Source of the DNA: Candidatus Syntropharchaeum sp.
GTDB taxonomy: Archaea > Halobacteriota > Syntropharchaeia > Syntropharchaeales > Syntropharchaeaceae
Length of the DNA stretch: 64,000 nucleotides
Direction of reading: 5' to 3'
NCBI GenBank assembly: GCA_026134025.1
Contig: JAOQII010000004.1
Location: 19,409-83,408 of the forward strand
Positions 11,448-63,376 of this stretch are shown here, in pieces (within the stretch, counting starts at the first letter, position 1; every line of letters starts with the position of its first letter). Position numbers and translations under genes: made by a program. The notes under the pieces were generated by a model that was not told where the DNA came from, did no database searches, and worked only from the letters and a program-made list of their open reading frames with translations.

Positions 11448-11664
11448 ACGCATCCCAAAAATATTATTTGTACCATCTGATATTTATTTCGCTTCATCCT
11501 CCACGACACGGGGGGGCGATTCGTCGAACGTCATCGTTACCAGGTACCATGTACTGGTTCCTGATTCTGGGAGTTAAATCCTGGCGAAATTTATTGGAGA
11601 TAGTACATTTTTTTGAACATGAGGGCGTAACACTTAATAAACGTTGTATCATAGGCATCTTCAG

Positions 11665-15637: not shown

Positions 15638-15705
15638 TTGTGAACCTCTAACTCTTTTTTTATTGATCCTATATAAAACTATCAATTCACATCTTAAGAG
15701 AAGCG

Positions 15706-15948
15706 GTCAGGCTGAAATCTGTGCTTGAGCGTTTTTCCCATTGAGCCTTATCCCGGTAATCGTCGATATATTCTTCTCCTGCATCACAACACCGATCGTT
15801 GAAGAGGCACACTCGATCATCGGCTCTCTGAGTGAAACAACAATAAATTGCGCGCTCTTTGATAACTTTTTGATCATCTTTGCGACCTTCTCGACATTCA
15901 CACCATCGAGCATCATATCTATCTCATCCAGTGCATAGAACGGTGCTG
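15706..15948. repeat. Copy 2 of the 243-bp direct repeat (the native 3' end of smc)
   Basis: Identical to 13846-14088 and contiguous with the smc body. Confidence 0.9.
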
Positions 15949-27453: not shown

Positions 27454-27481
27454 ATAGACCTCTGAAGGTATAGAGATTCAC

Positions 27482-47198: not shown

Positions 47199-47483
47199 AA
47201 GGAATCCCCCGTATTATCTCTTTACTACGAGTTTCTATATATATGTATTTTCATTTGGTAATCGATTAGCGTGGAATTTGAGCGAATAGTTCTTTGGAAA
47301 GATTTTTAAATCGCAACTCATAGTGTTAATAACGATAACGACTCCTGGAGGTTCAAGAATGGGAGAGATGACAGAGGAGCAGAAACGGGTGAAGGTTCAG
47401 GCATGCAGGGATGAAGTGGGGGATAAGTTCCCGATGAAGACCTGCATCGAGCACTGCCCGCTCTATGAGATCTGTAAGGATCT

Positions 47484-47569
47484 GCCGAGGTAGCCAAGCG
47501 GCCTACGGCGCTGGTCTTGAAAACCAGTGGGGCATACGTCCCGCAAGGGTTCAAATCCCTTCCTCGGCG
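47484..47569 (+). tRNA. tRNA-Ser (anticodon TGA), class II with long variable arm
   Basis: Acceptor stem GCCGAGG/CCTCGGC, anticodon loop CTTGAAA, long extra arm, T-loop GGTTCAAATCC. Confidence 0.85.
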
Positions 47570-47578
47570 TTTTTTTTT
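47570..47578 (+). terminator. Oligo-T tract immediately 3' of tRNA-Ser (archaeal-type terminator)
   Basis: A run of nine T residues directly after the discriminator base. Confidence 0.45.
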
Positions 47579-47876
47579 GGGAAAGAGGCAATGCGTCTCT
47601 ATCGTAATTTTTTAATGTTGCATGACTCACACGACAAAACACCCACCTGTGGCAGGGCCACTGACGTGTTAGGTCGGAGACTGAGTTAAGAGGTAAGGTG
47701 AGATGCACCTCATGCTGAAAAATCACAATATTTGAGGTTTATCAACCCCGGGCACTTGATCTGAACGCTAATCGAGAGCGGTTGATGGATGAATGGGGAC
47801 TTAGCTGATCAGGTATTAAATGTTGCCATAAAGATATAAACAAATAAATTAAGTTCGAATAGTATGGTGGTAAGCC

Positions 47877-48905
47877 ATGGGTGATTACAGAGATCGGAGT
47901 TATTTATCTGCGATAGAAGCCGCTAAATTTCTAAATATTTCTGTGAAGAAATTGCACGGATTAACAAGAAATAATACTATCGAATACAAAAAATCAGCCA
48001 GCGGTCAGATGAGATACGATCTGGAAGACCTGAAAAAATACGCTGAAGAAAATCATATACAATTGGATGGCGTGAATATAGAAATAAAACGTCTCTCTCA
48101 GCTTAAAATAGACAACACCATTCAAAAATTCATTTTTGGGAGTTCTATGGAGATGAAAGAGTTAGAAGATGATTCGGTACATCTCATGATCACTTCGCCA
48201 CCGTATTTTAACGCTAAAATGTATACAAATGAGCCGATTGAAGGCGATTTAGGGAATGTTCATGATTTAAATGAATGGTTTTCAGATATATCAAAAGTTT
48301 GGAAAGAGGTTTATCGAGTATTACAACCCGGTAGAAAAGCCTTTATTAACATAATGAATCTTCCCATACGAGAAAATAAAACTTTCAGGAGTCTAAATCT
48401 GGTTGGTAAAACAATTGATGTTATGGAAGATATTGGTTTTATTTTTAAGAGAGACATAATATGGCATAAAACAAACGGTGTTAAAGCACACTTCGGAACG
48501 TATCCATATCCAGGCGGTATATTGTTAAATAACATGCACGAATTCATATTAGAATTTAGCAAACCCGAGAAGAGAGGATTTAAAAAATACGGACATCTAA
48601 CCAAAGAACAGAAAGAAAAATCAAAAATAGAAAAAGATTTCTGGTTGAAATTAAAAAACAGTGATGTATGGTTGATAAAACCAGAAAAAAGCGGGGATAA
48701 CCGTAATCATGTAGCGCCTTTCCCCTATGAACTTCCTTTTCGGTTGATCAAAGCCTACAGTTACATTTCTGAGACCGTACTCGATCCCTTTGCGGGCTCA
48801 TTTGTTACATTGAAAGCCGCAAAAGATTTAGAAAGAAACGGAATTGGGTATGAGATAAATAAAGAAATTCTCAAGGAGGCACTGATTGAATTTGAAAGTG
48901 AGTAA
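47877..48905 (+). CDS. DNA methyltransferase (N4-C/N6-A, beta-class, SPPY motif) with N-terminal HTH
   Basis: Motif IV ITSPPYF precedes motif I LDPFAGSFVT. N-terminal MerR/excisionase-like HTH (LSAIEAAKFLNISVKKL). GC visibly lower than its surroundings. Confidence 0.8.
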   Translation: MGDYRDRSYLSAIEAAKFLNISVKKLHGLTRNNTIEYKKSASGQMRYDLEDLKKYAEENHIQLDGVNIEIKRLSQLKIDNTIQKFIFGSSMEMKELEDDSVHLMITSPPYFNAKMYTNEPIEGDLGNVHDLNEWFSDISKVWKEVYRVLQPGRKAFINIMNLPIRENKTFRSLNLVGKTIDVMEDIGFIFKRDIIWHKTNGVKAHFGTYPYPGGILLNNMHEFILEFSKPEKRGFKKYGHLTKEQKEKSKIEKDFWLKLKNSDVWLIKPEKSGDNRNHVAPFPYELPFRLIKAYSYISETVLDPFAGSFVTLKAAKDLERNGIGYEINKEILKEALIEFESE

Positions 48906-49356
48906 ACCAGATCTTACCAGAATCAATGATTCGATGAATTACTTACTCACCCATTCATACCCCCTTTCTCCATGATCAAGCCATTGCTCCATCCAATCCA
49001 ACCATACGCCCCTCACATCCACTATCTCCAAAAACTTGGTCTAAGACCTTCTCCACTTCAAAAACAGATGCTGGTGGATTTTTCCAGAATAAATAAGCAG
49101 ATGTGACCTCCTCTTGAGCTTTGTGCGGTGTCGTTTGTTGTGATTTATAATCTTAAAGTCAGTGATGAAGTTCAAGCCTTTAAACGCTTGGGTTGTGAAT
49201 AATACATCCTGTAAGAGTTTATAGATTCCATTGGCAGGTTTGTGATCTTCTCTGCTGCTCTTATGCTCAAATATGGAGATTTGATCCTGAGTGTGGCAGT
49301 GTCTGACTGCAAGTCGGAAGCAGGGTTAGAATTGGGCGATTGGAGTGGGTGGGGAG

Positions 49357-49402
49357 TTATAAAAGGAGATGGTCTGAGTATGAATAATTACGCAAGAGGT
49401 CT
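49357..49402 (+). repeat. 46-bp conserved element, copy A (ttataaaaGGAGATGGTCTGAGTATGAATAATTACGCAAGAGGTCT)
   Basis: 42/46 identity with 62488-62533. Begins with a TATA-like ttataaaa. Confidence 0.7.
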
Positions 49403-49473
49403 ATTTAAATGCTGAACCAATATCTTTATATAATCTCCATTAGATATAATTCTTAGCTTAAAGGGGGAAAAGC

Positions 49474-50169
49474 ATGAGTAGATATTCAATAGATGAGTTT
49501 GTACGTGCCACATCAGAGCGAGATCGCGGTGAGGGCCCATTTGAGCTTGAGAACGATCGGACGCTGGAGATCCAGCTTGATGGTATGGTATGGATAAAAA
49601 TGGGATCGATGGTCGCGTACAATGGTAATATTAAGTTCACGCGCGAGGGTGTTCTGGAACATGGTATCGGCAAGATGCTGAAGAAAGCGGTCACAGGCGA
49701 GGGAACGATGCTCACAAAGGCAGAAGGGAGTGGGAATCTCTATCTTGCAGACAGCGGTAAGAAGATCTCTGTAATAGAACTTCAGGGAGATTCAATCACC
49801 GTCAACGGGAACGACCTCCTCGCATTCCAGAATTCGGTCAAGTGGGATATAACGATGATGAAGAAGATAACAGGGGTGCTTGCAGGCGGGCTTTTCAATG
49901 TCAAGCTTCAGGGGGAGGGTATGATCGCGATAACCACTCATTACGACCCTGTAACACTTATTGTAAAGCCTGGTGAACCTGTATTCACAGACCCGAATGC
50001 AACCGTTGCATGGTCATCTAACCTCGCCCCGGATCTCAAGGCGGATGTCTCACTGAAGACCCTGGTTGGCAGAACGAGCGGTGAGACAATTCAGATGAGG
50101 TTCGATGGTGATGGTTTCGTCGTTATCCAGCCTTTCGAGGAGATTTACTACATGGAGACAACGGCTTGA
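49474..50169 (+). CDS. AIM24/DUF124-family protein
   Basis: 231 aa; beta-rich sequence with the characteristic G-rich repeats (KMLKKAVTGEGTMLTKAEGSGNLYLADSGKKI...LAGGLFNVKLQGEGMIAI). Confidence 0.6.
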   Translation: MSRYSIDEFVRATSERDRGEGPFELENDRTLEIQLDGMVWIKMGSMVAYNGNIKFTREGVLEHGIGKMLKKAVTGEGTMLTKAEGSGNLYLADSGKKISVIELQGDSITVNGNDLLAFQNSVKWDITMMKKITGVLAGGLFNVKLQGEGMIAITTHYDPVTLIVKPGEPVFTDPNATVAWSSNLAPDLKADVSLKTLVGRTSGETIQMRFDGDGFVVIQPFEEIYYMETTA

Positions 50170-50176
50170 TCGAGCT

Positions 50177-50752
50177 ATGAAGATTGAGAACGTTGTTGTA
50201 ATAATCGTAATCCTCGCTGCAGTCGGGATCATTTACCTGAACCTCGATAGGGAAGAGCTTGCTCCACTCAAAGAGGCGATTGATGCAGGTATTGAGGGCG
50301 GTTCATACTATATTAACCTTTTGATAGACGGTTTTGCTGACCTCCTCTCCCCTGTCACCTCAAAGGTTGTTATGAAAGGTGAGTATGTTAATACAGGTGA
50401 CCTTGAGATGACAATCAGCGAATGCGAGCTTGTTGATAGCGTTTTTGCAGAGGAGGGTGCAGCTTATCTTCTGGCACTTGTAAGTGTTAGAAACGTTGGA
50501 CAGGTTCCAGCGCACCTCCCAATTTTGATAGATATGCGCCTCTACTATCTCGATGATGTGATTCGACCAAAGAAAAGCTGGCGTGTTCCAGGCGGTAGGA
50601 CACACTACGATCCTCTTACAACAGATAAAATCTATCCAAATATCACAAAGGAAGGATGGGTATGCTTTGAGGTCCCAAAAGATATGAATCTCTCAGAAGC
50701 TGTAGTATCGGCGAGGTGTGAGGGTAGAAGGATTAAGTGGATGTGTGGTTGA
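50177..50752 (+). CDS. Membrane-anchored hypothetical protein (DUF4352-like beta-sandwich)
   Basis: N-terminal TM (VVVIIVILAAVGIIYL), then a soluble domain. Start taken at the internal Met after the AIM24 stop. Confidence 0.4.
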   Translation: MKIENVVVIIVILAAVGIIYLNLDREELAPLKEAIDAGIEGGSYYINLLIDGFADLLSPVTSKVVMKGEYVNTGDLEMTISECELVDSVFAEEGAAYLLALVSVRNVGQVPAHLPILIDMRLYYLDDVIRPKKSWRVPGGRTHYDPLTTDKIYPNITKEGWVCFEVPKDMNLSEAVVSARCEGRRIKWMCG

Positions 50753-50877
50753 CGCCATGGATATGGGATAATCGAAATAGTTATGTAAACCTACTGATAG
50801 AAGGGGGAGAATTAGTGTCGAGGTATTTGTTTAGCTCCCCTCTTTTAACCTTTCTTCAATCGATATTCTCTGAATGA

Positions 50878-51144
50878 ATGGCACGAAGAATAACACATTT
50901 CGATCCATGTATCAGTAAAAATGATAGAGGGCTACTCAGAGAACTTCGGGATGAAACTGCACATCTGAAAGAAGAGAATGCAAGACATGCCAAAGAAATC
51001 GAAGAAACGTGGCGCTCCAAAGGGTATTCAGGATGCATTCCTGCGTGTTCATGGATGAGACCGGAGGTAAGGAGCTTTCAAGAGGTGATTCATGAGAAGT
51101 TCAGGTTGCAGAGGACATATTTGAAGAGCTTGATGGGTTGTTGA
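50878..51144 (+). CDS. Hypothetical small protein
   Basis: 88-aa ORF. Weak support. Confidence 0.2.
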   Translation: MARRITHFDPCISKNDRGLLRELRDETAHLKEENARHAKEIEETWRSKGYSGCIPACSWMRPEVRSFQEVIHEKFRLQRTYLKSLMGC

Positions 51145-51213
51145 GGGAGGAGCTTTGTGGAGTGAGGTAAAGAAATACTAAAATTCTTATCAAAGTTACA
51201 TCTGATCTTGAAA

Positions 51214-51834
51214 CTACTCCAGAACTGCATGTCGTGCTTTCAGATCTTCCTCGCTTGCGCCTATTACTGCCATAAGCTCTGCGATTACAGCATCGAGCAC
51301 AACGAGCGATAGAACTTCAAACACCGTTCCAAGCGGCGTGAGGGATCGATATTCCCCTTTGATCTGTCGTTCTGTGTAGTCTTCCCCACCCACGTATTTT
51401 CTATCGAACCTGCCCCTGACCTCAAGGATAACGTCAGAAAGCTTCCCGAGCGTCGAGGATGGGACACTTGTGACAGAACCGATCAATACTCCTCTCGACT
51501 TTGCAACACGTGCCATATTTGCAATGTTCAACGTCTCACCAGAACCTGATATCGCGATTACAAGATCCCCTTTCTCAACCGCAGGTGTTGTGGTCTCGCC
51601 AGCGACATAAACGTTGAAACCAAGATGCATCAGCCGCATCGCAAACGCCTTTGCAACAAGTCCAGAACGTCCTGCTCCCATCACGAAAATCTTGTCTGCA
51701 TCCAGTATAACATCTATCAGCGCCTTGACGGCTTTTTCATCTATGGTCTCGATCGTCTCGTTGATCTGGTCCTTTATCAGTCCAATACAGCTCCTGAAAC
51801 TTGAACAGGTAACGCCATTTAAATTTTTGGGCAT
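51214..51834 (-). CDS. SIS-domain sugar-phosphate isomerase (6-phospho-3-hexuloisomerase-like)
   Basis: IFVMGAGRSGLVAKAFAMRLMHLGF SIS motif. About 200 aa, typical of archaeal PHI. Confidence 0.65.
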   Translation of the reverse strand: MPKNLNGVTCSSFRSCIGLIKDQINETIETIDEKAVKALIDVILDADKIFVMGAGRSGLVAKAFAMRLMHLGFNVYVAGETTTPAVEKGDLVIAISGSGETLNIANMARVAKSRGVLIGSVTSVPSSTLGKLSDVILEVRGRFDRKYVGGEDYTERQIKGEYRSLTPLGTVFEVLSLVVLDAVIAELMAVIGASEEDLKARHAVLE

Positions 51835-51837
51835 CTT

Positions 51838-52338
51838 TTAATCATCACTTGTACTGATATTTATACTCTTTGCTATTCCACTGGCGTTCAATTTGTTAAG
51901 GAGGAGGCGTATCTTCTCATCGTCAGCCTCCCACAAAATCGTCTTCTCGATATCACTCATCTCAAGTTCATGATCGATCGAATCGAGTAAACATTCGAGA
52001 ACCTCTTCCCTGATGAGTGGAGCGTTGAATATCGCCCTGTACTTATCCCCCTTCCTTCGGTATGAGAGTAAGATCAGCCCCCTCCCCGCCATCCGTTCTA
52101 TATCAGGAAACTCAGCGAGAAGATCCATCTCACAGGTTAATTTGGGATCGACCGTTCTAATTACATGCATTATTCTCGAGATATCCCCCCGTTCTGCACG
52201 CCTCCCAAGCCACATCCTAATCTTGCCATAGGTTATCGTGAGCAGGATGTTCTCATAACCGATTGTCAGATTCAGGAGGTTGCAGTTCAAACTATCGATG
52301 AGCGATGAAGGGGATTTTTCAGCTGACATCTCATACAC
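51838..52338 (-). CDS. Hypothetical protein
   Basis: 166-aa ORF translationally coupled to the downstream SIS gene. Confidence 0.35.
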   Translation of the reverse strand: MYEMSAEKSPSSLIDSLNCNLLNLTIGYENILLTITYGKIRMWLGRRAERGDISRIMHVIRTVDPKLTCEMDLLAEFPDIERMAGRGLILLSYRRKGDKYRAIFNAPLIREEVLECLLDSIDHELEMSDIEKTILWEADDEKIRLLLNKLNASGIAKSINISTSDD

Positions 52339-52411
52339 CCATAACTTCGGATCGGTTCGAATTTTACGTAAGGTATAATTAGATCTACAGTCGATACATA
52401 AATAATCTCAG

Positions 52412-52984
52412 GTGATCTCAACGTTGGGGGATACAGAAAAGCTTTTAGTCCTTTCGCTTGGCGATGAAGCGTCAAAAAAGATCTCGCAGGCAATTGCAAA
52501 CGATACAGCAAGGGATATACTCAATCTAGTTGCAGACGAGCCTCTATCGAGTAGTACAATTGCAGAGAAGCTTGAGATTCCACTTACAACAGTCCAGTAC
52601 AATATTGAGAAGCTTACCGAAGCAGGGCTCATCGATGTCAAGGAAAAGAGATGGAGCAAAAAGGGGAGGACGATCAAGGTTTATGGTCCAAAACGGAAGC
52701 TTCTTATCATTGTACCTGAGAATATTGGGAAAGAAGACATTCTGGGGGCTGTGAGAAAGTATCTCGGGATACTGCTCTTTGCGGGACTTCTATCTGTGAT
52801 ACTTGAGTTCATAACGTCAGATGGTTTTTTGGGAAAGAACGATTCAAAGGTTGCATTCGAGGCAGTTGAAGAGGTTACCAGAGGTATCTGGAATTTTGGA
52901 GATCATGTAGCCCTGTATTTCTTTGCAGGCGCTCTTTTTGTTGTTCTGCTTCTGCTTCTTGTTGATTGGTGGAAGAAGAGATAA
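52412..52984 (+). CDS. ArsR-family HTH regulator fused to a C-terminal transmembrane segment
   Basis: N-terminal ArsR-like wHTH (ISQAIANDTARDILNLVADEPLSSSTIAEKLEIPLTTVQYNIEKLTEAGLI), followed by two hydrophobic helices. Confidence 0.55.
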   Translation: MISTLGDTEKLLVLSLGDEASKKISQAIANDTARDILNLVADEPLSSSTIAEKLEIPLTTVQYNIEKLTEAGLIDVKEKRWSKKGRTIKVYGPKRKLLIIVPENIGKEDILGAVRKYLGILLFAGLLSVILEFITSDGFLGKNDSKVAFEAVEEVTRGIWNFGDHVALYFFAGALFVVLLLLLVDWWKKR

Positions 52985-53002
52985 GATTAACAGGAAAAAT
53001 TA

Positions 53003-53074
53003 AGCCAAGGTCCGGATTCGAACCGGAGTATAGTCGCTCTGCAGGCGACCGCGTAGCCACTCTGCCACCTTGGC
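53003..53074 (-). tRNA. tRNA-Cys (anticodon GCA)
   Basis: On the minus strand: acceptor GCCAAGG/CCTTGGC, anticodon stem GTCGC/GCGAC with loop CTGCAGA, T-arm TCCGG-TTCGAAT-CCGGA. D-arm slightly irregular. Confidence 0.7.
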
Positions 53075-53134
53075 ACGTTAAATCAAACCAACATCTCTAC
53101 TTCATCAGGGGTATATATAAGATTGGCGATCTTT

Positions 53135-54043
53135 CTAAACCCCTCTCAAAAAGCCTGCGGCATCCTCTGGAGGGACAGTGAGGATATAGATCCCGGTATT
53201 AAGCTCAAAACCTGCGGCTATCGAGAGTTTTGGGAGAATTCTTATGTTGAGGTGGTAATCCTCGTCGATCGTCTGTAAAAAGTGGTAATTGTATGGCGGG
53301 TCATCGAGTACAACCTTTAGAGACCTCAAAAGATCCCTGAAGATCCTCGAAAAAGAGGTTCTCTCGCTTGAGTCCATGCACGTTATATTATTTATATGTC
53401 GCTTTGGGATGACCCAGACCTCAAAAGGGGTCTTCGAATAGAAAGGTGCGAAAGCGATCCACGTCTGATCCTCGAAGATTACGCGACTGGATCCAGACTC
53501 CTCTTTCGTGATGGAACAGTACGGGCATCGATCAAGCTGTTTGATGACATCGCGTTCCCTTTCAAGTTCTGATGGCCTCAGCGGAAGTGCGATAAGCTGT
53601 GTGTGGGAGTGAGCAATCGATGCGCCAGCCTCTCGCTTATGATTCTTGAAGAGTGAAACGTACAGGATCGAGGCTTTATGCGCATAAAAATTGAAACGAT
53701 CCTGATAGGCATCCACCATGAGTTCCATCTCTACATCCGTAAAATCTGCGGGACTTGCGTCATGCTTTGCGGTCTCAACGATCACCTCATGGTGGCCATC
53801 TGGTGGACTTAAAGCTGGATAGAGGTTTTCAAAGCATCTCACATCCCACGATTGACCGGAATTAAGTTGATATACCGCTGTTTCAGGTGGAGTCATCGTT
53901 TCATTACCAGGACAGAACGGACAGTCCTTTGCTGGTCTTCTGGATCTTGCGTCATCCTTGATAAAATCCTGTGGTCGCTTTGCTCTACCAGATGCAAGAA
54001 TGCAGTACTCATTGAGGAAGTAATGCTTTCTTATCTCAGTCAT
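53135..54043 (-). CDS. GalT-family nucleotidyltransferase (galactose-1-phosphate uridylyltransferase/ADP-glucose phosphorylase-like, HIT superfamily)
   Basis: Zn-binding CPFCPGNE, HxHxQ active site (AHSHTQLIA), two half-barrel halves. Confidence 0.75.
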   Translation of the reverse strand: MTEIRKHYFLNEYCILASGRAKRPQDFIKDDARSRRPAKDCPFCPGNETMTPPETAVYQLNSGQSWDVRCFENLYPALSPPDGHHEVIVETAKHDASPADFTDVEMELMVDAYQDRFNFYAHKASILYVSLFKNHKREAGASIAHSHTQLIALPLRPSELERERDVIKQLDRCPYCSITKEESGSSRVIFEDQTWIAFAPFYSKTPFEVWVIPKRHINNITCMDSSERTSFSRIFRDLLRSLKVVLDDPPYNYHFLQTIDEDYHLNIRILPKLSIAAGFELNTGIYILTVPPEDAAGFLRGV

Positions 54044-54583
54044 CTATACTGCTCGCTTGAGTTCCACAACCTTGAGACTTCTATTGTCCTGGCAACTATC
54101 CTGTAAATCCCCCAGCACATTCAAGATAACGTATTTATCCCCTCTGATCAATCCGGGCGGAAAACAGAAATCTCTGAACTTGCAATCTATGAAACTGCAC
54201 ACTTTTGGCACATATACGATCTTCGATCTATCAAAGCACTTCTTTGAGTCGATTGCAGCTTTTATGGTGGGTTCTACTACCTCTACAGCAATGACTCCTC
54301 CGTCATGGATCGGGCAGTCATGTCCTGTCCCGCTTCTGACCTTAAGAACCCTGTATCGTCTACCTTCATCGAGATTCGTGCAGGTGTTTCGCATACGACA
54401 GTTTTCACACTCATCAGGGGTTTTATTGACGACGAACTCGACACCTTCCCTTGCAAGTCTCATCCCGATGAGCGTCACGATCACCTCGCTCTCACTAACA
54501 TCAAGTTCAACATCCTCTGCTTTGAATCGCTCCCACAGATCATCAGATTTATCAGATCCTTCAACATCTCCAGCCATCTTCAT
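54044..54583 (-). CDS. UPF0179-family conserved archaeal protein (Cys-rich)
   Basis: VTLIGMRLAREG and multiple CxxC-like cysteines are typical of UPF0179. The true start may be an internal Met. Confidence 0.55.
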   Translation of the reverse strand: MKMAGDVEGSDKSDDLWERFKAEDVELDVSESEVIVTLIGMRLAREGVEFVVNKTPDECENCRMRNTCTNLDEGRRYRVLKVRSGTGHDCPIHDGGVIAVEVVEPTIKAAIDSKKCFDRSKIVYVPKVCSFIDCKFRDFCFPPGLIRGDKYVILNVLGDLQDSCQDNRSLKVVELKRAV

Positions 54584-54601
54584 TATCCCTCTTTTATCTT
54601 T

Positions 54602-55633
54602 CTAAATAACCTTTGTGACAGATGCAAGCCTGTATGCCGCATCCTCTGTGATTCCTTCGCCAAGTATCGTGTACCTGTCAGGGTTTATGGTATGGGCGAT
54701 CGTGAGCGCTTCCACAATATACGCTCCATCGATTCCAAGCCCTTCTGCATCAACAGGCGCTCCAATATCAGAGAGTGCTCTGCGTATCGATCTCCAGTCA
54801 CCACCATGAAGGTGCATCATCATGATCGTACCAACTCCACACTGTTCACCGTGCATCGCAGGCCTGGGTGCAATTCTATCGAGTGCGTGGCTGAATTTGT
54901 GCTCAGAACCAGATGCAGGGGCAGAAGTTCCTGCTATACTCATCGCAACCCCACTCGATATGAGTGCCTTCACAACGAACCGTACAGACTCTTCAACGTT
55001 CGGTTTGATCGCGCCTGAGGATTCGATGATCATCTTTGCCGTCATCTCTGAGAGCGCTGCTGCATAGGCACTGTAAGGTGCGTTCTTAAGCCTTGATGCA
55101 AGTCGCCAATCCCTGACCGCGGTGAAGTTTGAGATGATATCTCCACATCCAGAGCGAAGAAACCTTGGTGGGGCTTTTGCGATGATCTCGGTATCTGCAA
55201 CCACACCAAGCGGTGATTGAGCAGCCATCGATATCGATCCACGTTCCTCTTTAACAGACGCCCTTGATGACGCGATTCCATCATGCGCTGCCGTGGTCGG
55301 AACGCTTAAAAAAGGTATACCAATCTGTGCAGATGAAACTTTGGCAAGATCTATCACTGTCCCACCACCAACACCCACGATAAAAGATGCTCCAACCTCC
55401 TCTGCACGCGCTTTCACGTTCTCGATCCGTTCCCTCGTGATCGAATCCGTAACAAAAGCTGAAAAATCGTAACCCGCATCAGCGAGAATCTCACAGACGT
55501 TATCCCCTGCTATCTTTCTTGTGAGATCATCCATGACAACAACTACCGAATCATGGAGTCCGAGTTTCTTACAGGCATTCGCGATCTCGTTTATCGTACC
55601 GTGGCCCACGACGATCTCACGTGGGAGCTGCAT
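54602..55633 (-). CDS. egsA: Glycerol-1-phosphate dehydrogenase [NAD(P)+] (archaeal lipid backbone synthesis)
   Basis: Dehydroquinate-synthase-like fold: GVGGGTVIDLAKV nucleotide motif, HDGIAS, HALD metal ligands. Start moved to MQLPREIVVGHG. Confidence 0.85.
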   Translation of the reverse strand: MQLPREIVVGHGTINEIANACKKLGLHDSVVVVMDDLTRKIAGDNVCEILADAGYDFSAFVTDSITRERIENVKARAEEVGASFIVGVGGGTVIDLAKVSSAQIGIPFLSVPTTAAHDGIASSRASVKEERGSISMAAQSPLGVVADTEIIAKAPPRFLRSGCGDIISNFTAVRDWRLASRLKNAPYSAYAAALSEMTAKMIIESSGAIKPNVEESVRFVVKALISSGVAMSIAGTSAPASGSEHKFSHALDRIAPRPAMHGEQCGVGTIMMMHLHGGDWRSIRRALSDIGAPVDAEGLGIDGAYIVEALTIAHTINPDRYTILGEGITEDAAYRLASVTKVI

Positions 55634-55795
55634 CCACTTCGGCGTTCTAATCTCGTTCAACAAGCTTATATACCTCGCCTTTAAATTATTTAGGGTGATC
55701 TTCTGACGCTGTGGGATCTCGTATACCAGTACTACATCGATCCGATCGTTCATGATACAGGATATAATCCCGTTAACACGCTTACATGGGCGATC

Positions 55796-56521
55796 GTGCT
55801 TGGGTTAAGTCTCTTCGGCGTCTTGAGACTGCTCAAAGCCCTTGAGATTCGGATAGATACACGCTTTATCTTTTCTCTCATCCCTTATATCTTTGTTGGA
55901 TCGACGCTCAGGGTGATAGAGGATGCAAATCTGATAAACCCACCCGCCTCATACCTTCTGATAACGCCCCTCATCTATTTCATCGTCTTTTTAGCGGTCT
56001 TAACGCTCCTTCTTATATCCATCAGGATTACACCTGAATTTTACGCGCTCTTCGGCTCATTCGGTATGCTGTGGACACTCTTAAATCTTGCGATCCTGAT
56101 TCTAAAGGTGGACGCGCTAAATCTCTGGGTATTGCCTGCCATAATCCTGATCGCACTCGGGGTTATCATACCACTGTATCTAATTCTTCGAGTATTGAAT
56201 GAGATTTTATTACCCAGCCCTGAGAACCTCGCGATTCTTGGATCTCATCTCCTCGATGCATCAAGCACGTTCATCGGTGTTGATCACCTCTCGTACCAGG
56301 GAAAACACGTCGTTGAACGCTTTCTGATCGAGCATACAGGAACAGCTCTCTCAATGATCCCGCTCAAACTCATCATCCTGTTACCACTCCTCTATCTACT
56401 CGATCGTGAGCTTAAAGATGAGGAGGATGCAGATCTCAAAGGTATCCTTATCCTTACGCTGATCGTCATTGGGCTTGCACCTGCTATTAGAAATACGACA
56501 AGGATGCTTTTTGGGATTTGA
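55796..56521 (+). CDS. DUF63-family archaeal integral membrane protein
   Basis: 241 aa, 6-7 TM, conserved LLDASSTFIGVDH region typical of DUF63. Confidence 0.5.
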   Translation: MLGLSLFGVLRLLKALEIRIDTRFIFSLIPYIFVGSTLRVIEDANLINPPASYLLITPLIYFIVFLAVLTLLLISIRITPEFYALFGSFGMLWTLLNLAILILKVDALNLWVLPAIILIALGVIIPLYLILRVLNEILLPSPENLAILGSHLLDASSTFIGVDHLSYQGKHVVERFLIEHTGTALSMIPLKLIILLPLLYLLDRELKDEEDADLKGILILTLIVIGLAPAIRNTTRMLFGI

Positions 56522-56603
56522 TGAGGGGAGAATATGGAGCGCAGATACCTATTTATTTAGAAATTTTTATATACTAAAAAATGGTCGTCTTCGTTGGGTG
56601 TGA

Positions 56604-56972
56604 ATGATGTCAGGTTATATGGAAATCGCCTTGATTACGATTGTTGGAATACTGTTTCCTGTTATTGCATTTGTAGCTTCCTGGCTTTTGAGACCATCTC
56701 ATCCGAATGATGAAAAATTCACGATATATGAATGTGGTGAGATAGCCCTGGGCGGTGATTCACGTAAGAATATTGGTATCCAGTTCTATCTCTTCGCTTT
56801 GATCTTCGTCATCTTTGATGTTGAAGCGATATTTTTATACCCCTGGGCGGTATCGTTTGGAGGATTGGGTGCCTTTGCATTCATCGAGATGATGATTTTC
56901 ATCGGCGTTCTTGTCGCGGGCTATGCATATGCATGGAAGATAGGCGCTCTTGAATGGGTTGGTGATGCGTGA
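56604..56972 (+). CDS. fpoA: F420H2 dehydrogenase/complex I subunit A (NuoA-type)
   Basis: 3-TM protein with [13 protein letters not shown] and [13 protein letters not shown] motifs. Confidence 0.85.
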
Positions 56973-58087
56973 TGGATCGAGAGTATGTCACGGATAAGAT
57001 CAGAAGAAGTATGGGAAGACGCATTCTGACCGATGAAGAGGTTTCCGGATGGTGGATAATTGGTGGGATCGTAACCTTCGGTCTTCTTTTCCTTCTGCTT
57101 TTTTTAAAGTTGATTCACCGGAGAAATGAGCATTTTAAACGACAGAAAATGCTTGAAGAGCAGATCATAGAACTCGTGGGTATCGATCTGAAAGATAAAA
57201 AGATGCTCGCCGATCTCAAGGCGATCCATAACGAAGGCTACGAGTCGGGTGAGTTTAAAGATCTATCATTCTTAAGAATTATCCCTGCAATCATTACACT
57301 TGGACTCTACATCGAATGGAGACTCACAAAAGATCTCATGATCCATGCAGAGAGACAGCGGCGATTCTTCTCATGCTATCTCGGACGAGAACTTGAGGAT
57401 ACAACTCCCCAGCGACCCACAGGGAAATATCTCGGACTGGGTGTTGTGACACTCGGGTTATTTGGGATCTACTGGACGAACCTTATCATAAAAGACTCGA
57501 ATGAGCACTTTAAAGATCAGTGGAAGCTTGAAGATCTACTGCCAGAAGCGGGCATGGAGATCGATGAGGGGGTAGATCCAGACTTCTATAAGAACATAAT
57601 CTTAACAACGGTTGATAAGTTCCTAAACTGGGGCAGGACGTGCTCCGTATGGCCAATGGCGTTCGGTACTGCCTGTTGCGCGATGGAGATGATGGCGACA
57701 TTTGCCTCACGTAATGATATGGATCGATACGGCATGATCTTTCGTAACTCACCCAGACAGGCAGATGTTCTCATTGTGGCAGGCACGATCACGCAGAAGA
57801 TGGCACCACGACTCAGGAGGCTCTATGATCAGATGGCTGAGCCGAAGTACGTCATAGCGATGGGCGCGTGTGCAATGACAGGCGGTCCCTTTGTCAACTC
57901 ATACAGCGTACTCAAAGGCGTGGATAAAGTCATACCTGTGGATATATATCTTCCGGGCTGCCCGCCGAGGCCAGAGGCACTCCTCAATGCGTTCCTCCAG
58001 CTTCAGGAACGGATGAAAGAGGAGCGCACAGTAACAAAGAAATTTGAAAGATGGATTTTAAAAGACCGTAAGGAGGTTGTAACATGA
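56969..58087 (+). CDS. fpoB: F420H2 dehydrogenase/complex I subunit B (NuoB-type, N2 cluster) with an unusual 200-aa membrane-associated N-terminal extension
   Basis: C-terminal 170 aa are canonical NuoB ([26 protein letters not shown]). The N-terminal part has a TM helix ([19 protein letters not shown]) and a second hydrophobic segment. Confidence 0.85.
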
Positions 58088-58542
58088 GTGAAGAACTTCT
58101 CAATGAGTTTCCTCATGTGGTAAAATCCGAAGATGGACTTCTACTTGTCGAGGCTGATCAGATCATCGAGGTTTGCACATTCCTCAAAAATAAGGGCTTT
58201 GACTTCCTTGAGGCGATATCAGGCGCTGACTTTGAGGAATATCTGGAAGTAATATATAATATTGCGTCTTACTCGAAGCCAGATCGGGTAATGCTCACCG
58301 TGAGAATCTCGAAGGATAATCCGATACTGCCAACTGTCACCTCACTCTGGCATGGTGCGAACTGGCATGAACGGGAAGCGTACGATATGTTCGGGATAAA
58401 GTTCAAAGGACATCCCAAACTCGCAAGAATCCTTTTGCCAGATAGCTGGGATGGATATCCACTCTTGAAGAGCTATCCACTGGATAAGGAGCAGAAGGTA
58501 GAGCTTGAGGATGAGACGGGGGTGGAGATATGTCAGATATAA
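58084..58542 (+). CDS. fpoC: F420H2 dehydrogenase/complex I subunit C (NuoC-type, 30 kDa)
   Basis: [23 protein letters not shown] signature. Confidence 0.85.
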
Positions 58543-59636
58543 GAAAGGTTGTAGAGATCCCGATCAATATGGGTCCTGCTCATCCTGCAACACACGGTGT
58601 TCTGAGGCTCAGGCTCAAGCTTGAAGGTGAGATCGTTAGAGAGGTCGATCCAGTCATCGGGTACCTCCACCGCGGCATTGAGAAACTTGCAGAATCACTG
58701 ACTTACCCACAGTTCATCCCATACACAGACCGGCTCGATTATGCCGGAAGCATGCTCAACAACCTCGGTTATGTTAAAGCAGTAGAGGAACTTCTTGGAA
58801 TTGAGGTCCCAGAGCGAGCTGAGTACCTCAGGGTGATGACGACAGAGCTTTCAAGGATTGCGTCTCACCTTGTATGGCTCTCTGCATGGGGGCTTGATCT
58901 TGGCGCGATGGCACCGTTTTTCTACTGTTTCAGGGAGCGAGAAGAGATCTTAAATATCTTTGAGATGCTCTGCGGTGCGAGGATAACATTTTCATACATG
59001 CGAATCGGCGGTGTCTCAAAAGATATGCCAGAAGGCTTTGCCGACCGCCTGCAGAACTTCCTCGATATATTTCCTGAGAAGCTGAGTGAGTATGAGACGA
59101 TCTTGACCGAGAATGAAATCTTTCTGGCAAGAACGGTCGGAGTCGGGATACTACCAAAAGAAGATGCGATCGATTATGGTGTGACAGGACCTATTGCCAG
59201 AGCATCAGGACTTGAATACGATACGCGAAAGATTGAGCCCTACTCGATCTATGATCGGTTCGATTTCAGGATTCCTGTGGAGCATGGATGTGACGTCTAT
59301 TCCCGTTACCTCATTCGAGTTGAGGAGATGAAACAGAGTATGAAGATCGTTCAGCAGGCACTTGACAAGATTCCAGAAGGAGAAATCATGGCAAAGGTTC
59401 CGAAGAAGATAAAGCCAGAACCTGGAAGGGTTTATTCTCGTGTTGAAGGTTCTAAAGGTGAGCTTGGCTTTTTAATAATAAGTGATGGATCTGATAAGCC
59501 GTATCGGCTCAGGATTCGCTCACCTGCATACAGCAACGTCGCTGCACTGCCTGTCATGTGTGAGAATGCAAAGATTGCGGATGTTGTTGCGACCGTGGGT
59601 AGCCTGGATATATGTCTTGGGGAGATGGATAGATGA
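58530..59636 (+). CDS. fpoD: F420H2 dehydrogenase/complex I subunit D (NuoD-type, 49 kDa)
   Basis: NMGPAHPATHGVLRL N-terminus, RIGGV and C-terminal conserved regions. 368 aa. Confidence 0.9.
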   Translation: MSDIRKVVEIPINMGPAHPATHGVLRLRLKLEGEIVREVDPVIGYLHRGIEKLAESLTYPQFIPYTDRLDYAGSMLNNLGYVKAVEELLGIEVPERAEYLRVMTTELSRIASHLVWLSAWGLDLGAMAPFFYCFREREEILNIFEMLCGARITFSYMRIGGVSKDMPEGFADRLQNFLDIFPEKLSEYETILTENEIFLARTVGVGILPKEDAIDYGVTGPIARASGLEYDTRKIEPYSIYDRFDFRIPVEHGCDVYSRYLIRVEEMKQSMKIVQQALDKIPEGEIMAKVPKKIKPEPGRVYSRVEGSKGELGFLIISDGSDKPYRLRIRSPAYSNVAALPVMCENAKIADVVATVGSLDICLGEMDR

Positions 59637-60670
59637 CAACAACGATGTATGATTCACTTGTTGGAATCCTGAGTCAGCTGGGAGTCTATCAGATACTTTC
59701 AGGTTTTTTACCAGAGATTGTGATCAGGATAATGCTGGTACTTGCTATCGCGGGGGTTGTCGCGACCGTAGCATCGTTGATACTTGCATACCTGACATGG
59801 CTTGAACGGAAAGTCCTGAGTGATATTCAGCAGCGAATAGGGCCAATGCGAACAGGGCCACATGGACTCCTGCAGCCGATCGCGGATGGTATCAAGCTGC
59901 TCGTCAAGGAGGATGTTCACCCAAAGACGATCGATAAATGGGTCTTCCTGCTTGCACCAATCGTGATGTTTGTACCTGTCGTGGTCGTACTTGCTGTAAT
60001 TCCCTTCGGAAAAACCCTTGTTATGACAGATCTCAGCGTTGGGATCGTCTTCCTGCTTGCAGTCTCATCGCTTCCGACGCTTGGTATTATTATGGCTTCA
60101 TGGGCGCAGAATAACAAGTATGCGGTTCTTGCAGGGCTTAGAAGGGCGGCAGAGATCATAAGCTATGAAATATCGATGGTTCTCGCTGCCATAGGGGTAG
60201 TATTACTTGCAGGAACATTGAGTTTACCTGGAATCGTTGAAGCACAGACCGGATTACCTTATATTATTCTCCAGCCGCTTGGATTTCTGATATTCTTCAT
60301 CGGACTCCTTGCAGACCTTGGGAGAATTCCTTTCGACTTCCAGGAGTCTGAATCAGAACTTGTTGCAGGGTACACAACCGAATATTCAGGGATGAAATTC
60401 TCCTTCTTCTTCTTAGCTGAGTACCTTGAACTCTTTGTTGCAGGGGGAATTCTCACCACGCTATATCTTGGAGGCTGGAATGGGCCGTTCCTGCCGTCAT
60501 GGCTCTGGTTTGCTATAAAGACCTTTATCGTGATCTGGGTGATCCTCTGGATTCGTGCAACCTTACCAAGGGTCAGGATTGATCAGTTACTTGATATTGG
60601 ATGGAAGTGGCTCCTACCGCTTGCACTTCTGAATATTGCAATAACTGGCGGTGTGCTGGCGGTGATGTGA
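59633..60670 (+). CDS. fpoH: F420H2 dehydrogenase/complex I subunit H (NuoH-type membrane subunit)
   Basis: 8-TM protein with WLERKVLSDIQQRIGPMRTGPHGLLQPIADGIKL and FDFQESESELVAGY(T)TEYSG motifs. Confidence 0.9.
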   Translation: MTTTMYDSLVGILSQLGVYQILSGFLPEIVIRIMLVLAIAGVVATVASLILAYLTWLERKVLSDIQQRIGPMRTGPHGLLQPIADGIKLLVKEDVHPKTIDKWVFLLAPIVMFVPVVVVLAVIPFGKTLVMTDLSVGIVFLLAVSSLPTLGIIMASWAQNNKYAVLAGLRRAAEIISYEISMVLAAIGVVLLAGTLSLPGIVEAQTGLPYIILQPLGFLIFFIGLLADLGRIPFDFQESESELVAGYTTEYSGMKFSFFFLAEYLELFVAGGILTTLYLGGWNGPFLPSWLWFAIKTFIVIWVILWIRATLPRVRIDQLLDIGWKWLLPLALLNIAITGGVLAVM

Positions 60671-60683
60671 AGGATTATAATTT

Positions 60684-61472
60684 ATGACCGAGATTCCAAA
60701 GAATCATCCCCGCTACGAATCTTTGTCGCTGCGGGAAGAAATAACAAGATGCGTTGAAGCAGGAATTACCAGCAGGCAGGGACTCATCGCACACGGGAGA
60801 GGTGAGGCGATCGATTATCTCATCGGTGAAAAATCACTTCCAACTGCGTTAGAGGCAGAAGATGCGGCTGTTGCTCTTCTTTTAACTGCAGAAAGACCTG
60901 TAATATCTGTAAACGGCAATACCGCAGCACTGGCTCCGAAAGGGATCGTCGAGCTTGCAGAGCTTGTGGATGCAAAGATCGAAGTGAATCTCTTTCACAG
61001 GACAGAGGAGCGGATAGCAAAGATCAAAGAGCATCTTGAGAGCTATGGTGCCAGGGGTGTTCTTGGCCTGGAACCTAATGAGGTGATACCAGGTCTTTCA
61101 AGTGAACGTGCGAAGGTCTCAAGAGAAGGGATATTCAGTGCAGATACAGTGCTTGTGCCGCTTGAGGATGGGGATCGGTGTGAGGCGCTTGTTGCGATGG
61201 GAAAGAAAGTGATAGCGATCGATATTAACCCATTCTCCCGCACATCGAGGATGGCACACATCTCGATCGTGGATAATGTGATTCGCGCGATACCAAATAT
61301 GATTAAAAGCGCCAACGAGTTAAAGTATACACGGGTAATTGATCTGCTGTTCATGATTGAATGTTTTGAGAACAAGAAAAACCTGAAAAGCACGGTTGAA
61401 GAGATCAAGCGAGGTCTGGATGAGGGACGACTGGAAGAGAGTCAGGGCTATAGCAAACTATCAATTTGGTAG
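60684..61472 (+). CDS. Conserved archaeal protein, possibly 4-phosphopantoate--beta-alanine ligase (phosphopantothenate synthetase, COG1701)
   Basis: 262 aa. Size and overall pattern are consistent with archaeal PPS, but no diagnostic motif could be verified by eye. Confidence 0.4.
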   Translation: MTEIPKNHPRYESLSLREEITRCVEAGITSRQGLIAHGRGEAIDYLIGEKSLPTALEAEDAAVALLLTAERPVISVNGNTAALAPKGIVELAELVDAKIEVNLFHRTEERIAKIKEHLESYGARGVLGLEPNEVIPGLSSERAKVSREGIFSADTVLVPLEDGDRCEALVAMGKKVIAIDINPFSRTSRMAHISIVDNVIRAIPNMIKSANELKYTRVIDLLFMIECFENKKNLKSTVEEIKRGLDEGRLEESQGYSKLSIW

Positions 61473-61884
61473 GGGAGCTGGATCTGCTCTCTTCCCTGAT
61501 GAACCTGAGATTCGCCGCTCAAGAACAGGGCGTATAAGGCAGATCTTCTATAGGGGGGAGAGGATAGCAACACTTAAGACCGATGGGCTATTCACCTTAA
61601 GTATTGAGGGTGCTACAAGGTTGCACCACCACCTTCCATACCCAAAGATGCGTGTCGTTGTTGAGGATGATGCAGCCCCCTTCGTTCGTGATGGTAAGAA
61701 TGTATTTGCGAGGCATGTCGTCGAGGTCGATGATGATCTTCGCGCGTTCGATGAGGTCCTGGTCGTCGATCGATCCCGCAACCTGCTGGGCACGGGTAAA
61801 GCAGTTCTTTCAGCGTGCGAGATGCTTTCGTTTATGAGGGGTGTGGCGGTTGATGTTAGATCTGGAGTCGGAGGAGTTGAGTAA
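61420..61884 (+). CDS. PUA-domain RNA-binding protein
   Basis: MRDDWKRVRAIANYQFGRGAGSALFP N-terminus and C-terminal PUA-like beta region (GKNVFARHVVEVDDDLRAFDEVLVVD). Overlaps the upstream ORF end. Confidence 0.55.
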   Translation: MRDDWKRVRAIANYQFGRGAGSALFPDEPEIRRSRTGRIRQIFYRGERIATLKTDGLFTLSIEGATRLHHHLPYPKMRVVVEDDAAPFVRDGKNVFARHVVEVDDDLRAFDEVLVVDRSRNLLGTGKAVLSACEMLSFMRGVAVDVRSGVGGVE

Positions 61885-61885
61885 G

Positions 61886-62233
61886 ATGTTTCCTGGAATG
61901 GCGGGTGCCAACCCGAGAAAGATGAAACAGATGATGAAACAGATGGGGATCTCACTCGATGAGCTTGAGGATGTGCGTGAGGTCGTAATCAGGATGGGTG
62001 ATCGAGAACTGGTCTTTCCGGATGCGGTTGTCACGGTGATGAATGCACAGGGGACAACGCTCTATCAGGTTGTTGGAACGCCAGAGGAGCGATCACTGGG
62101 GCCTGAAATAGATGAGGAGGATCTTCAACTTGTGATCGAGAAGACCGGTGCAACGCGCGAAGAGGCAAAAGAAGCTCTGGAGAGTGCAAACGGAGATCTT
62201 ATCGAGGCAATAATGAAACTTGGTGGTGAATGA
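61886..62233 (+). CDS. nac: Nascent polypeptide-associated complex protein (NAC alpha homolog) with C-terminal UBA domain
   Basis: MFPGMAGANPRKMKQMMKQMGI N-terminus, NAC domain, C-terminal UBA (EEAKEALESANGDLIEAIMKL). Confidence 0.85.
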   Translation: MFPGMAGANPRKMKQMMKQMGISLDELEDVREVVIRMGDRELVFPDAVVTVMNAQGTTLYQVVGTPEERSLGPEIDEEDLQLVIEKTGATREEAKEALESANGDLIEAIMKLGGE

Positions 62234-62254
62234 TCAGTATCCATTCTTTTTGAT

Positions 62255-62339
62255 GCGGGGGTTGCCAAGCCAGGTCAAAGGCGCAGGGCTTAGGACCCTG
62301 TCTCGTAGGAGTTCGCGAGTTCGAATCTCGTCCCCCGCA
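62255..62339 (+). tRNA. tRNA-Leu (anticodon TAG), class II with long variable arm
   Basis: Acceptor GCGGGGG/CCCCCGC, anticodon stem CAGGG/CCCTG with loop CTTAGGA, long extra arm, T-loop GTTCGAATC. Confidence 0.85.
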
Positions 62340-62487
62340 TAGCCCTCCCTCAGGGGTTGCGAGCTAATTGCCAGAGAATCGATCCAAGATCAAGAATCAT
62401 TACGTCTTACTTGGCAACGATGACGTTCGACGATCTGGAGGCACCGGAGCAGGAACTCCAGCGTTTCAGAAATAGAGTCTTGGAATA

Positions 62488-62533
62488 TTATAAAAAGTGA
62501 TGGTCTGAGTATGAATGATTACGCAAGAGGTCT
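62488..62533 (+). repeat. 46-bp conserved element, copy B (ttataaaaAGTGATGGTCTGAGTATGAATGATTACGCAAGAGGTCT)
   Basis: Near-identical to 49357-49402. Located about 150 bp 3' of tRNA-Leu. Confidence 0.7.
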
Positions 62534-62548
62534 TTATCCTCTCATACA

Positions 62549-63376
62549 TCAGCCATACATATCCTTCAACCCTTCTCGTACAGCTTCCTCCATAACCTCA
62601 AGCGGCGGATCGACCCCCAGCCAGATCCTGAATGACTCCGCCCCCTGATAGACGAGCATCTTGACACCATCTATCGTCAGGCACCCTCTACGCTCTGCCT
62701 CACCAAGCAGCATGGTTTTTTGGGGGTTATAGACAAGATCAAATACGATCAGGTCCTCGTGAAGGAGGTCAGGGTCTATCGGAATTTTATCAACCTCCGG
62801 GTACATACCTACCGATGTTGTGTTTATGAGAATATCAGACTCGGCTATAACAGGTGCGATTCTCTCTCTTTCAAGACCGATTGCAGTAACACTCCCACCA
62901 AGCTCATCAGCCAGTCTTTCACCCTTTTCTTTTGTCCTGTTTGAGATTACAAGCTTGCAACCTGCCTCAACACAGGAGAAAGCTACTGCACGGGAAGCTC
63001 CACCTGCACCAAGCATCAGAACACGTTTATCTCCAAGATCAATACCTGCTGACCGAAGCGAACCTGTAACGCCAAACGCATCGGTATTGTATCCTTTTTC
63101 ACGGATGAAATCGATCGTATTTACCGCACCGATTCTTTCTGCAAGTGGATCGGGATCGATAAACGCCATCACAGCCTCTTTGTGTGGGACTGTGACGTTG
63201 AGACCCTGAATTCCAAGCGCCTTTGCACCACGGATTGCTTCGCTCAGATCTTCAGATTTCACGCGAAATGGGAGATACGTACACTCAAGCTCGAGCGCCC
63301 TGTATGCAGCATTGTGCATCCTCGGGGAGAGTGAATGCCCGATCGGGTCACCGATAACACCGAATATCCGCATCAT
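62549..63376 (-). CDS. aroE: Shikimate dehydrogenase
   Basis: IFGVIGDPIGHSLSPRMHNAAYRAL N-terminus, GAGGASRAV NADP-binding loop. 275 aa. Confidence 0.9.
   Translation of the reverse strand: MMRIFGVIGDPIGHSLSPRMHNAAYRALELECTYLPFRVKSEDLSEAIRGAKALGIQGLNVTVPHKEAVMAFIDPDPLAERIGAVNTIDFIREKGYNTDAFGVTGSLRSAGIDLGDKRVLMLGAGGASRAVAFSCVEAGCKLVISNRTKEKGERLADELGGSVTAIGLERERIAPVIAESDILINTTSVGMYPEVDKIPIDPDLLHEDLIVFDLVYNPQKTMLLGEAERRGCLTIDGVKMLVYQGAESFRIWLGVDPPLEVMEEAVREGLKDMYG

Follow-up and report, generated by a model that had tools for sequence, protein, structure and literature searches.

The BOX elements of pneumococci and the BIMEs of E. coli form stable stem-loops and are present in tens to hundreds of copies. 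The repeat described here, found in an uncultured archaeon of the Candidatus Syntropharchaeales, shares with BOX (boxA-boxB-boxC) and with BIMEs/REP a length below 200 nt, the non-coding character, the intergenic position, the composition of modules in different combinations, the variability between strains and the frequent location after the 3' ends of genes. In contrast to these elements, it shows no significant fold, was detected at only about five loci and belongs to an archaeal host. MITEs, e.g. the SM elements of Sulfolobus, are alike in their small size, lack of coding, dispersal, presence/absence polymorphism and conserved ends with a divergent interior, and it is MITE-like, too, that one copy of the repeat adjoins a truncated gene. 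However, the terminal inverted repeats and the parent IS of MITEs were not found here, and no target-site duplication was visible at the boundaries inspected. A literature search for Syntrophoarchaeum plus MITE found no paper.

A third group for comparison are the integron attC sites, including single attC sites without integrase. Both attC and our repeat comprise a conserved site of ~50-140 nt located 3' of a variable short 'cargo', with a sharp boundary and unrelated DNA beyond, but the repeat lacks R''/R' boxes (RYYYAAC...GTTRRRY) and an imperfect palindrome, does not form arrays and has no integron integrase in its neighbourhood. The occurrence of integrons in archaea has been reported (PMC9668308). 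Overall, we regard the repeat as a small intergenic element of a kind that is not surprising, though uncharacterised.

The two copies in the window

The window, i.e. the whole stretch of DNA analysed, comprises 64,000 nt of a Candidatus Syntropharchaeum contig. A repeat search detected a 46-nt direct repeat (family D6) on its plus strand, with copy A at 49357-49402 and copy B at 62488-62533. The two copies are identical at 43 of 46 positions (93%) and differ at core positions 9, 11 and 30. The initial annotation had given 42/46; the strong pairwise likeness stands, but the figure is a miscount, since the consensus given there itself carries three ambiguity codes. A 35-nt core pattern with up to 3 mismatches matched exactly twice in the window and not once in 100 dinucleotide shuffles. 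The A/B duplicate is real and far beyond chance. No third copy was found in the window with a profile made from all copies.

In a pairwise alignment of A and B including 100 nt on either side, the likeness opens at TTATAAAA and closes at GGTCT, in agreement with the earlier description of unrelated flanks. Compared with other loci, the similarity of copy A spans 49352-49404 and ends in GGTCTAT (BLAST: 100% over 47 nt with L010, 96% over 52 nt with L013). Copy B was recovered by repeat search, pattern and alignment and is present as the same copy in the strain contigs L003 and L001.

Both copies are intergenic, A past a methyltransferase islet and B about 150 bp past tRNA-Leu, as had been stated before. 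Copy A is preceded by an ORF combining HTH_17 and an N6_N4 DNA methyltransferase (47877-48905, GC 36%) and followed by a gene of the AIM24 family (49474-50169). Copy B starts 148 nt past tRNA-Leu(TAG) (62254-62340) and ends 16 nt short of the stop of the convergent aroE gene (62549-63376). The small frames described for the copies were found, too: an 11-codon ORF in A (MNNYARGLFKC) and a 45-codon ORF in B running antisense into aroE.

The islet preceding copy A (47571-49356) is low in GC and directly follows tRNA-Ser(TGA). Its orphan DNA methyltransferase is fused to the excisionase-like HTH_17 (47877-48905) and is followed by ~450 nt without a credible ORF. A contig of the Logan assembly breaks at 47576. 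Neither an integrase nor a tRNA-end repeat was detected in the islet, and the tRNA-Ser end is not repeated within 47300-49600.

Other direct repeats were noticed in the window. The sequences 13843-14088 and 15703-15948 (246 nt, 100% identical) flank a 1.6-kb low-GC insert (36-37%) between the 3' ends of an RNA polymerase Rpb3/RpoD-type gene (13090-13884) and of SMC (15707-19210, minus strand). This insert encodes a HEPN-domain protein (14119-14574) and two ORFs without Pfam match. It has the appearance of a recent insertion whose duplicated target or att sequence is unusually long. The pairs 32803-32879/33539-33615 and 33402-33484/34003-34085 (77-83 nt, 89-92% identity) correspond to parts of two tandem small ORFs, namely their signal-peptide-like starts and their PEP-CTERM-like ends, which are hydrophobic and rich in arginine. 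These ORFs probably encode paralogous secreted or anchored proteins.

Further loci and their distribution

The search for more copies proposed in the initial annotation was positive and yielded three new loci in a metagenome scan as well as strain variants of the known ones. JGI metagenome contigs were scanned with a 19-nt core pattern for which an exact match was required. The eight matches comprised L009, which is the locus of copy A again, the three new loci L010, L012 and L013, and four chance 19-mers (L006-L008 and L011), which were rejected as they showed no similarity beyond the pattern. The ENA contig L014, reached via the neighbouring cdhE gene, stems from another sample and carries the copy of L013, with 2 nt deleted from the core. 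L010 abuts a PadR fragment, L012 lies upstream of TRAM/tRNA-Leu and the L013/L014 copy follows cdhE. The copies are intergenic and often located beside tRNA genes or shortly after convergent genes, at their 3' ends. Judged from these contigs, the repeat is present at at least five places in an uncultured Ca. Syntropharchaeales archaeon of the butane-oxidiser type; that L010 and L012 are from the same organism we only infer.

The AroE protein encoded next to copy B is 99% identical to that of the 'Candidatus Syntropharchaeales archaeon' MAG GCA_054799105.1 and 75% identical to that of Ca. Syntrophoarchaeum sp. WYZ-LMO15. Among 185,579 species-representative genomes, the sole match to the core was a 3.4-kb Guaymas Basin contig representing the same locus as copy A. 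Viral contigs gave no match in three scans with different sub-patterns, nor did plasmid and phage collections searched with the unit by blastn. Specificity of the repeat for this Ca. Syntropharchaeales lineage is part of the best-supported interpretation.

The Guaymas Basin contig (QMLL01000344.1 = Ga0164318_10065484, our L002/L009) is deposited in the MAG 'Deltaproteobacteria bacterium B119_G9'. Since it is near-identical to positions 47662-51064 of the window, it is probably mis-binned archaeal DNA of the Syntropharchaeales.

Modules, strain variation and boundaries

Every copy loses similarity at the same point, directly after GGTCTAAT, 2-3 nt past the 46-mer. At the other side, the similarity begins at TTATAAAA in the comparison of A and B only, and it persists upstream in five of the seven sequenced copies; in most copies, 25 to about 100 nt are conserved beyond the 'TATA'. 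The sequence CTKGGAATA upstream of the box is common to B, its strain variant L003 and L010-L014, and GTTTCAGAAATAG further upstream is common to B and L010-L014. The lengths of similarity within the core family are nested: 46-52 nt for A, 71 nt for B (window 62463-62533, 87-92% identity to L010, L012 and L013 by BLAST) and 140-152 nt for L010, L012 and L013, which are ~95% identical to each other up to or near the starts of their contigs. The linker of copy B, GTTTCAGAAATAG(AG)T plus CTTGGAATA (62463-62487, plus strand), holds the short palindrome TTTC-A-GAAA; it recurs in L010, L012, L013 and L014 and is not found in copy A.

Upstream of these shared parts the copies carry heads of at least three versions (A-type, B-type and L010-type), which are not alignable as DNA. 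The degenerate A-type head (49289-49356, plus strand) shows no similarity to the others that is detectable at DNA level. The B-type head (62384-62462, plus strand) is unlike the head of L010/L012/L013, and its 5' 50 nt recur at 11521-11570. Given the shared 3' end, the upstream similarity and the interchangeable heads, the best-supported reading of the alignments is that the 46-mer represents the 3'-terminal and best-conserved module of a modular non-coding repeat of ~140-155 nt, and no stand-alone promoter of a small RNA. The full unit would consist of a variable head (~70 nt, at least three types), followed by GTTTCAGAAATAG, CTKGGAATA and the core reaching from TTATAAAA to GGTCTAAT.

Modules were also observed without the core. 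The intergenic region 11448-11643 is a patchwork of a B-type head piece and a module that we call X. The head piece (11521-11570, minus strand; inverted repeat I1, 50 nt, 80%) is located between the genes of a Lon_C protease and of rpS13, and its local alignment with the B-type head reached a score of 52. Module X (11460-11498, minus strand) occurs 3' of the core in L012, too (207-244; BLAST, 85% over 39 nt).

Strain variation was found within the unit of copy B. A segment of 85 nt (62394-62478, plus strand) is present in the window and missing from L003 (GCA_054799105.1, the strain with the 99% identical AroE), where the alignment has a clean gap. L003 contains 6 extra nt (AATACT) right after the core, and the flanks are otherwise nearly identical. 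In relatives whose CdhE is 87-88% identical, the orthologous site after cdhE shows no trace of the repeat. The neighbourhood of aroE is not syntenic in relatives with 75-84% identity. In L010, an ORF of the PadR family on the opposite strand is cut at profile position 32 of 75, exactly at the end of the core. With its absence from sister species, the 85-nt indel between strains, at least five loci, a length of ~140-155 nt and broken frames, the repeat has the properties of a small, non-coding, multi-copy and polymorphic element.

Furthermore, contigs from four independent assemblies have their ends at the element, at its module junctions or next to these. Among the Logan contigs (SRR21418560), L001 ends exactly at 62479, L021 at 11504, between X and the head piece, and another one at 47576. 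L010 and L014 share the homologous 5' position at which they break off, and L015 stops 8 nt past cdhE.

In all relatives, the cdhE stop is followed by a G/C hairpin (CCCCCC-N5-GGGGGG) and a T-run, resembling an intrinsic terminator in an archaeon (positions 178-196 in L013, 3680-3710 in L020 and about 7390-7410 in L016). The repeat of L013/L014 sits just beyond this terminator-like hairpin.

The unit was also compared with the hallmarks of mobile elements. Terminal inverted repeats were not detected: alignment of the first 70 nt of the units with the reverse complement of the core end gave a score of 12, which was matched by 390-455 of 500 shuffles. By inspection, no matching short repeats indicating target-site duplication were seen at the boundaries of L012, L013 and B, where the 5' boundary is uncertain because contigs end there. 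No transposase or recombinase was identified as autonomous partner, and no clean pair of an empty and a filled site was obtained for the whole unit. An IS200/IS605 end (PATE), expected to have subterminal hairpins, or a TnpB omega-RNA, expected to be a structured scaffold over 100 nt up to the boundary, was rejected, with no stable hairpin in the terminal 50 nt and a whole-unit z of ~0; tnpA and tnpB were not seen in any locus. A CRISPR leader was rejected, too, as no CRISPR-like repeats lie beside any copy and L012 and L013 share only 13 nt past the unit. The same applies for a group II intron 3' end, for which there was no intron match in Rfam.

Readings of the repeat

The interpretation given in the initial annotation is partly supported. 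The specific proposal that the 46-mer starts with a promoter and continues into the 5' end of a small RNA fits poorly, but the broader alternative named there, a conserved regulatory or att-like site, may hold. The TATA-like box is internal to the repeat, because in five of seven copies the similarity continues upstream via CTKGGAATA, GTTTCAGAAATAG and up to ~90 more nt. Conservation stops about 12-19 nt past the plus-strand start, which is predicted about 23-30 nt after TTATAAAA; with so short a shared stretch followed by unrelated sequence, conservation does not indicate a promoter plus sRNA 5' end. The DNA downstream of the core differs from locus to locus, being antisense of aroE, of cdhE and of the PadR fragment and upstream of the AIM24 and TRAM genes, and no common RNA body or terminator was found across the loci. 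Structure prediction gave no significant fold, neither for whole units (z -0.8 to +0.5, both strands) nor for the core alone (z -0.9 to +0.2). Rfam detected tRNAs and 5S only, both in the whole window at gathering thresholds and at E<=5 in the B region, L010, L012 and L013. The small-RNA interpretation is thus largely unsupported.

C/D box RNAs are arranged as C (RUGAUGA), D', C' and D (CUGA) with a guide spacing of ~12 nt. As candidate, a C/D box sRNA was rejected: GUGAUGG is followed by CUGA after 1 nt, a terminal CUGA is missing and there is no Rfam match of the snoRNA type. An H/ACA reading was ruled out by box order and spacing on inspection. The apparent pairing GGAGAT/ATCTCC in A and L010 was treated as chance because it falls in the promoter region of AIM24 in the one case and in sequence coding for PadR in the other.

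At copy B, a hairpin is predicted from the 5' half of the core together with the last codons, the stop and the 3' flank of aroE (62497-62560, plus strand; MFE -20.5 kcal/mol, z=-2.8). T5 comes next on the minus strand, and the hairpin is kept in L003 despite a 6-nt insertion in the loop (z=-1.8). Folding of the other loci gave no counterpart, so the hairpin is locus-specific; it is possibly a candidate terminator of aroE.

Another match concerns the 5S rRNA promoter. The 15 nt TTTAAATAGACCTCT at 27449-27463 (plus strand) comprise its TATA box and the next 7 nt and recur exactly at 49395-49409 on the minus strand. The match is unique to copy A, since half of it falls in the flank of A. It may be due to chance, or GACCTCT may be a promoter-proximal motif of this organism.

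It appears unlikely that the repeat is a portable promoter or sRNA start for either strand, in which TTATAAAA would be the TATA box of short antisense or leader RNAs starting at ~49387-49394 and 62518-62525 (plus strand) or at ~49327-49334 and 62458-62465 (minus strand). With archaeal BRE/TATA promoters the repeat has in common a box of 8 nt, TTATAAAA, and a purine-rich sequence on its 5' side, which is GGGAATA on the plus strand of most copies, and in the window both the 5S promoter (GAGAAAC-TTTAAATA) and the AIM24 promoter (TTTATATAA) look similar. The palindrome TTTCAGAAA stands at the place of a putative minus-strand start or operator, L012 and L013 each have a minus-strand ATG where their similarity ends, and the 15 nt of the 5S promoter are repeated on the minus strand over the 3' junction of copy A. 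Unlike BRE/TATA promoters, however, the box is located midway within the repeat, can be read just as well on the other strand and has no consistent transcript or gene downstream. A plus-strand transcript would hold 12-19 conserved nt and then unrelated sequence without a common terminator; on the minus strand, no gene follows either window copy. Moreover, significant structure and Rfam matches are both absent, conservation of the repeat at orthologous sites does not extend to sister species, and L013 and L014 are altered inside the box (TTATAAGA). Alternatively, the copies might be relics of a family of small protein genes, e.g. of a DUF433-like antitoxin, with the core as C-terminal end plus 3' UTR kept alike by gene conversion, which we regard as rather unlikely, albeit not negligible. 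One frame ends with ...YK(K/R)RWSEYE* inside the core, and the core substitutions in it are AAA/AAG (synonymous), AGG/AAG (R/K) and TAA/TGA (stop/stop). In the ...YKRRWSEYE* frame, the A-type head reads ECGSV*LQVGSRVRIGRLEW, compared with ERGMQFLTRGSRIPVSEIVW in the L012 head. These two heads are thus alike as protein and not as DNA (tblastn E=1.4e-4; 7 of 20 identities excluding the core), a level reached by 7 of the 127,876 six-frame 20-mers in the window, among which the one in the A head is core-adjacent (background about 5e-5 per 20-mer). DUF433 proteins (PF04255) are small HTH proteins, often antitoxin-like, and the G-S-R-I-P-V-x-E-I of the L012 translation resembles their G-T-R-I-P-V core. 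The match over the GSRIPV motif is weak (E=0.0097-0.074, 13-16 bits); its best score of 16.2 bits is below the Pfam threshold of 23.6, covers profile positions 15-39 only and needs read-through of a stop. In contrast to DUF433 genes, the ORF ends at about profile position 39 of 56 and lacks a toxin gene as partner; in most copies it is interrupted by a frame shift or a stop. Furthermore, no copy has a convincing start codon; the A-type head contains an in-frame stop and no start, so that its coding content is at most a relic; B has an in-frame TGA; and B and the L013/L014 copy carry frame-shifting 2-nt indels, so that the frame in which B reads the conserved GTTTCAGAAATAG is not that of L010-L012. 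According to the alignment, the differences among L010, L012, L013 and L014 are mostly non-synonymous. Homologues were found neither for the 53-aa L012 peptide among 5.8 billion clustered proteins (word-indexed search) nor for the 47-aa B ORF among 1.84 billion representatives, and coding does not explain the 17 conserved nt after the stop and the sharp boundary. At most, the sequences allow that the unit descends from a small gene, which it is not now.

Two further readings concern the origin of the copies. An att- or attC-like site at the edge of acquired DNA, e.g. at the right edge of the tRNA-Ser-linked methyltransferase islet in the case of A and of a tRNA-Leu-adjacent remnant in the case of B, seems improbable to us. 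A tRNA gene lies upstream of either copy, a low-GC islet with an HTH_17-methyltransferase fusion has A at its end, a Logan contig breaks exactly at the 3' end of tRNA-Ser, and a variable 'cargo' beside a constant site of ~55 nt is reminiscent of a cassette with its attC. However, A and B are not the attL/attR pair of a 13-kb insert, because the interval between them (49403-62487) is housekeeping DNA of uniform GC encoding Fpo/Nuo subunits, a G1P dehydrogenase-type Fe-ADH, phosphopantothenate synthetase, NAC and tRNA-Cys. The core neither overlaps nor resembles tRNA 3' ends: its alignment to the four available tRNAs was non-significant, with one of 24 comparisons to tRNA 3' ends reaching 4 of 300 shuffles, and a tRNA-derived att core was therefore rejected. 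An attC was rejected, too, as the palindrome typical of it is missing, self-complementarity is not significant and the end GGTCTAAT, read directly, misfits GTTRRRY. In addition, no integrase was found, the islet edge has no repeat of the tRNA-Ser end, the copies are solitary and not arranged in arrays, and viral, plasmid and phage collections contain no match. Little credence is given as well to the view that the copies are functionless leftovers of a few segmental duplications, subject to neither mobility nor selection. The low copy number, the lack of structure and of recognisable machinery and the restriction to one lineage would suit such leftovers, but neutral decay would not keep a block of 46-55 nt 93-100% identical across at least five loci while the adjacent homologous sequence diverged beyond detection at DNA level, nor is a single 3' end point common to all copies or a concentration of strain-level indels in the element expected from it.

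We tentatively favour, at somewhat short of an even chance, a non-coding repeat of intergenic DNA that recombines or is mobile, with its conserved core acting in cis. It is present in multiple copies with a sharp common 3' boundary and shuffled modules; strains and species differ in its presence, and one boundary coincides with a broken gene. From these observations, mobility of the unit is inferred. The unit might spread or reshuffle through a trans-acting process, recombination or transposition, that uses the conserved core as its recognition or recombination site, which would explain why the core remained 93-100% identical and the heads diverged past recognition as DNA. Modules would be gained, lost and recombined on the time scale of strains. 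In that case, the two copies in the window would be units that have decayed or been rearranged, A consisting of the core and a relic head and B being a full-length variant. Against this reading of a recombining repeat speak the results given above on terminal inverted repeats, target-site duplication, a partner enzyme and an empty site, as well as the low copy number, with five loci seen in a scan which needed a 19-nt exact match. Furthermore, a near-identical core next to saturated heads also fits selection on a host function, or gene conversion, and the contig ends may have trivial causes, e.g. nearby tRNA genes or low coverage. A more specific version, to which we assign a very low probability, is that the core is the site of an undescribed archaeal module-exchange system, 3'-anchored and cassette-like, analogous to attC/dif and working without inverted repeats through a putative recombinase on an unstructured site of ~55 nt. 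Such a system would account for a 3' end that is constant and heads that are interchangeable, for the strain-level gain or loss of 85 nt and for the truncated gene at the boundary.

For the host, any effects of the recombining repeat are probably cis-regulatory and incidental. The AT-rich TTATAAAA/TTTTATAA box of the core could be a putative TATA box in either direction, and the run of T4-5 on the minus strand of the core (49365-49361 and 62496-62492) could be a putative aid to the termination of convergent genes such as aroE. By itself the repeat reveals no new RNA or mechanism; its main value is to correct the small-RNA annotation and to flag a repeat family. It also draws attention to portable promoter- or terminator-like sequences dropped beside core metabolic genes (aroE, cdh operon) and could serve as a marker for strain tracking. 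If our reading is true, a lineage-specific small repeat marks sites of strain-level rearrangement in alkane-oxidising Syntropharchaeales, and this would explain why metagenome assemblies of this organism are fragmented at these points.
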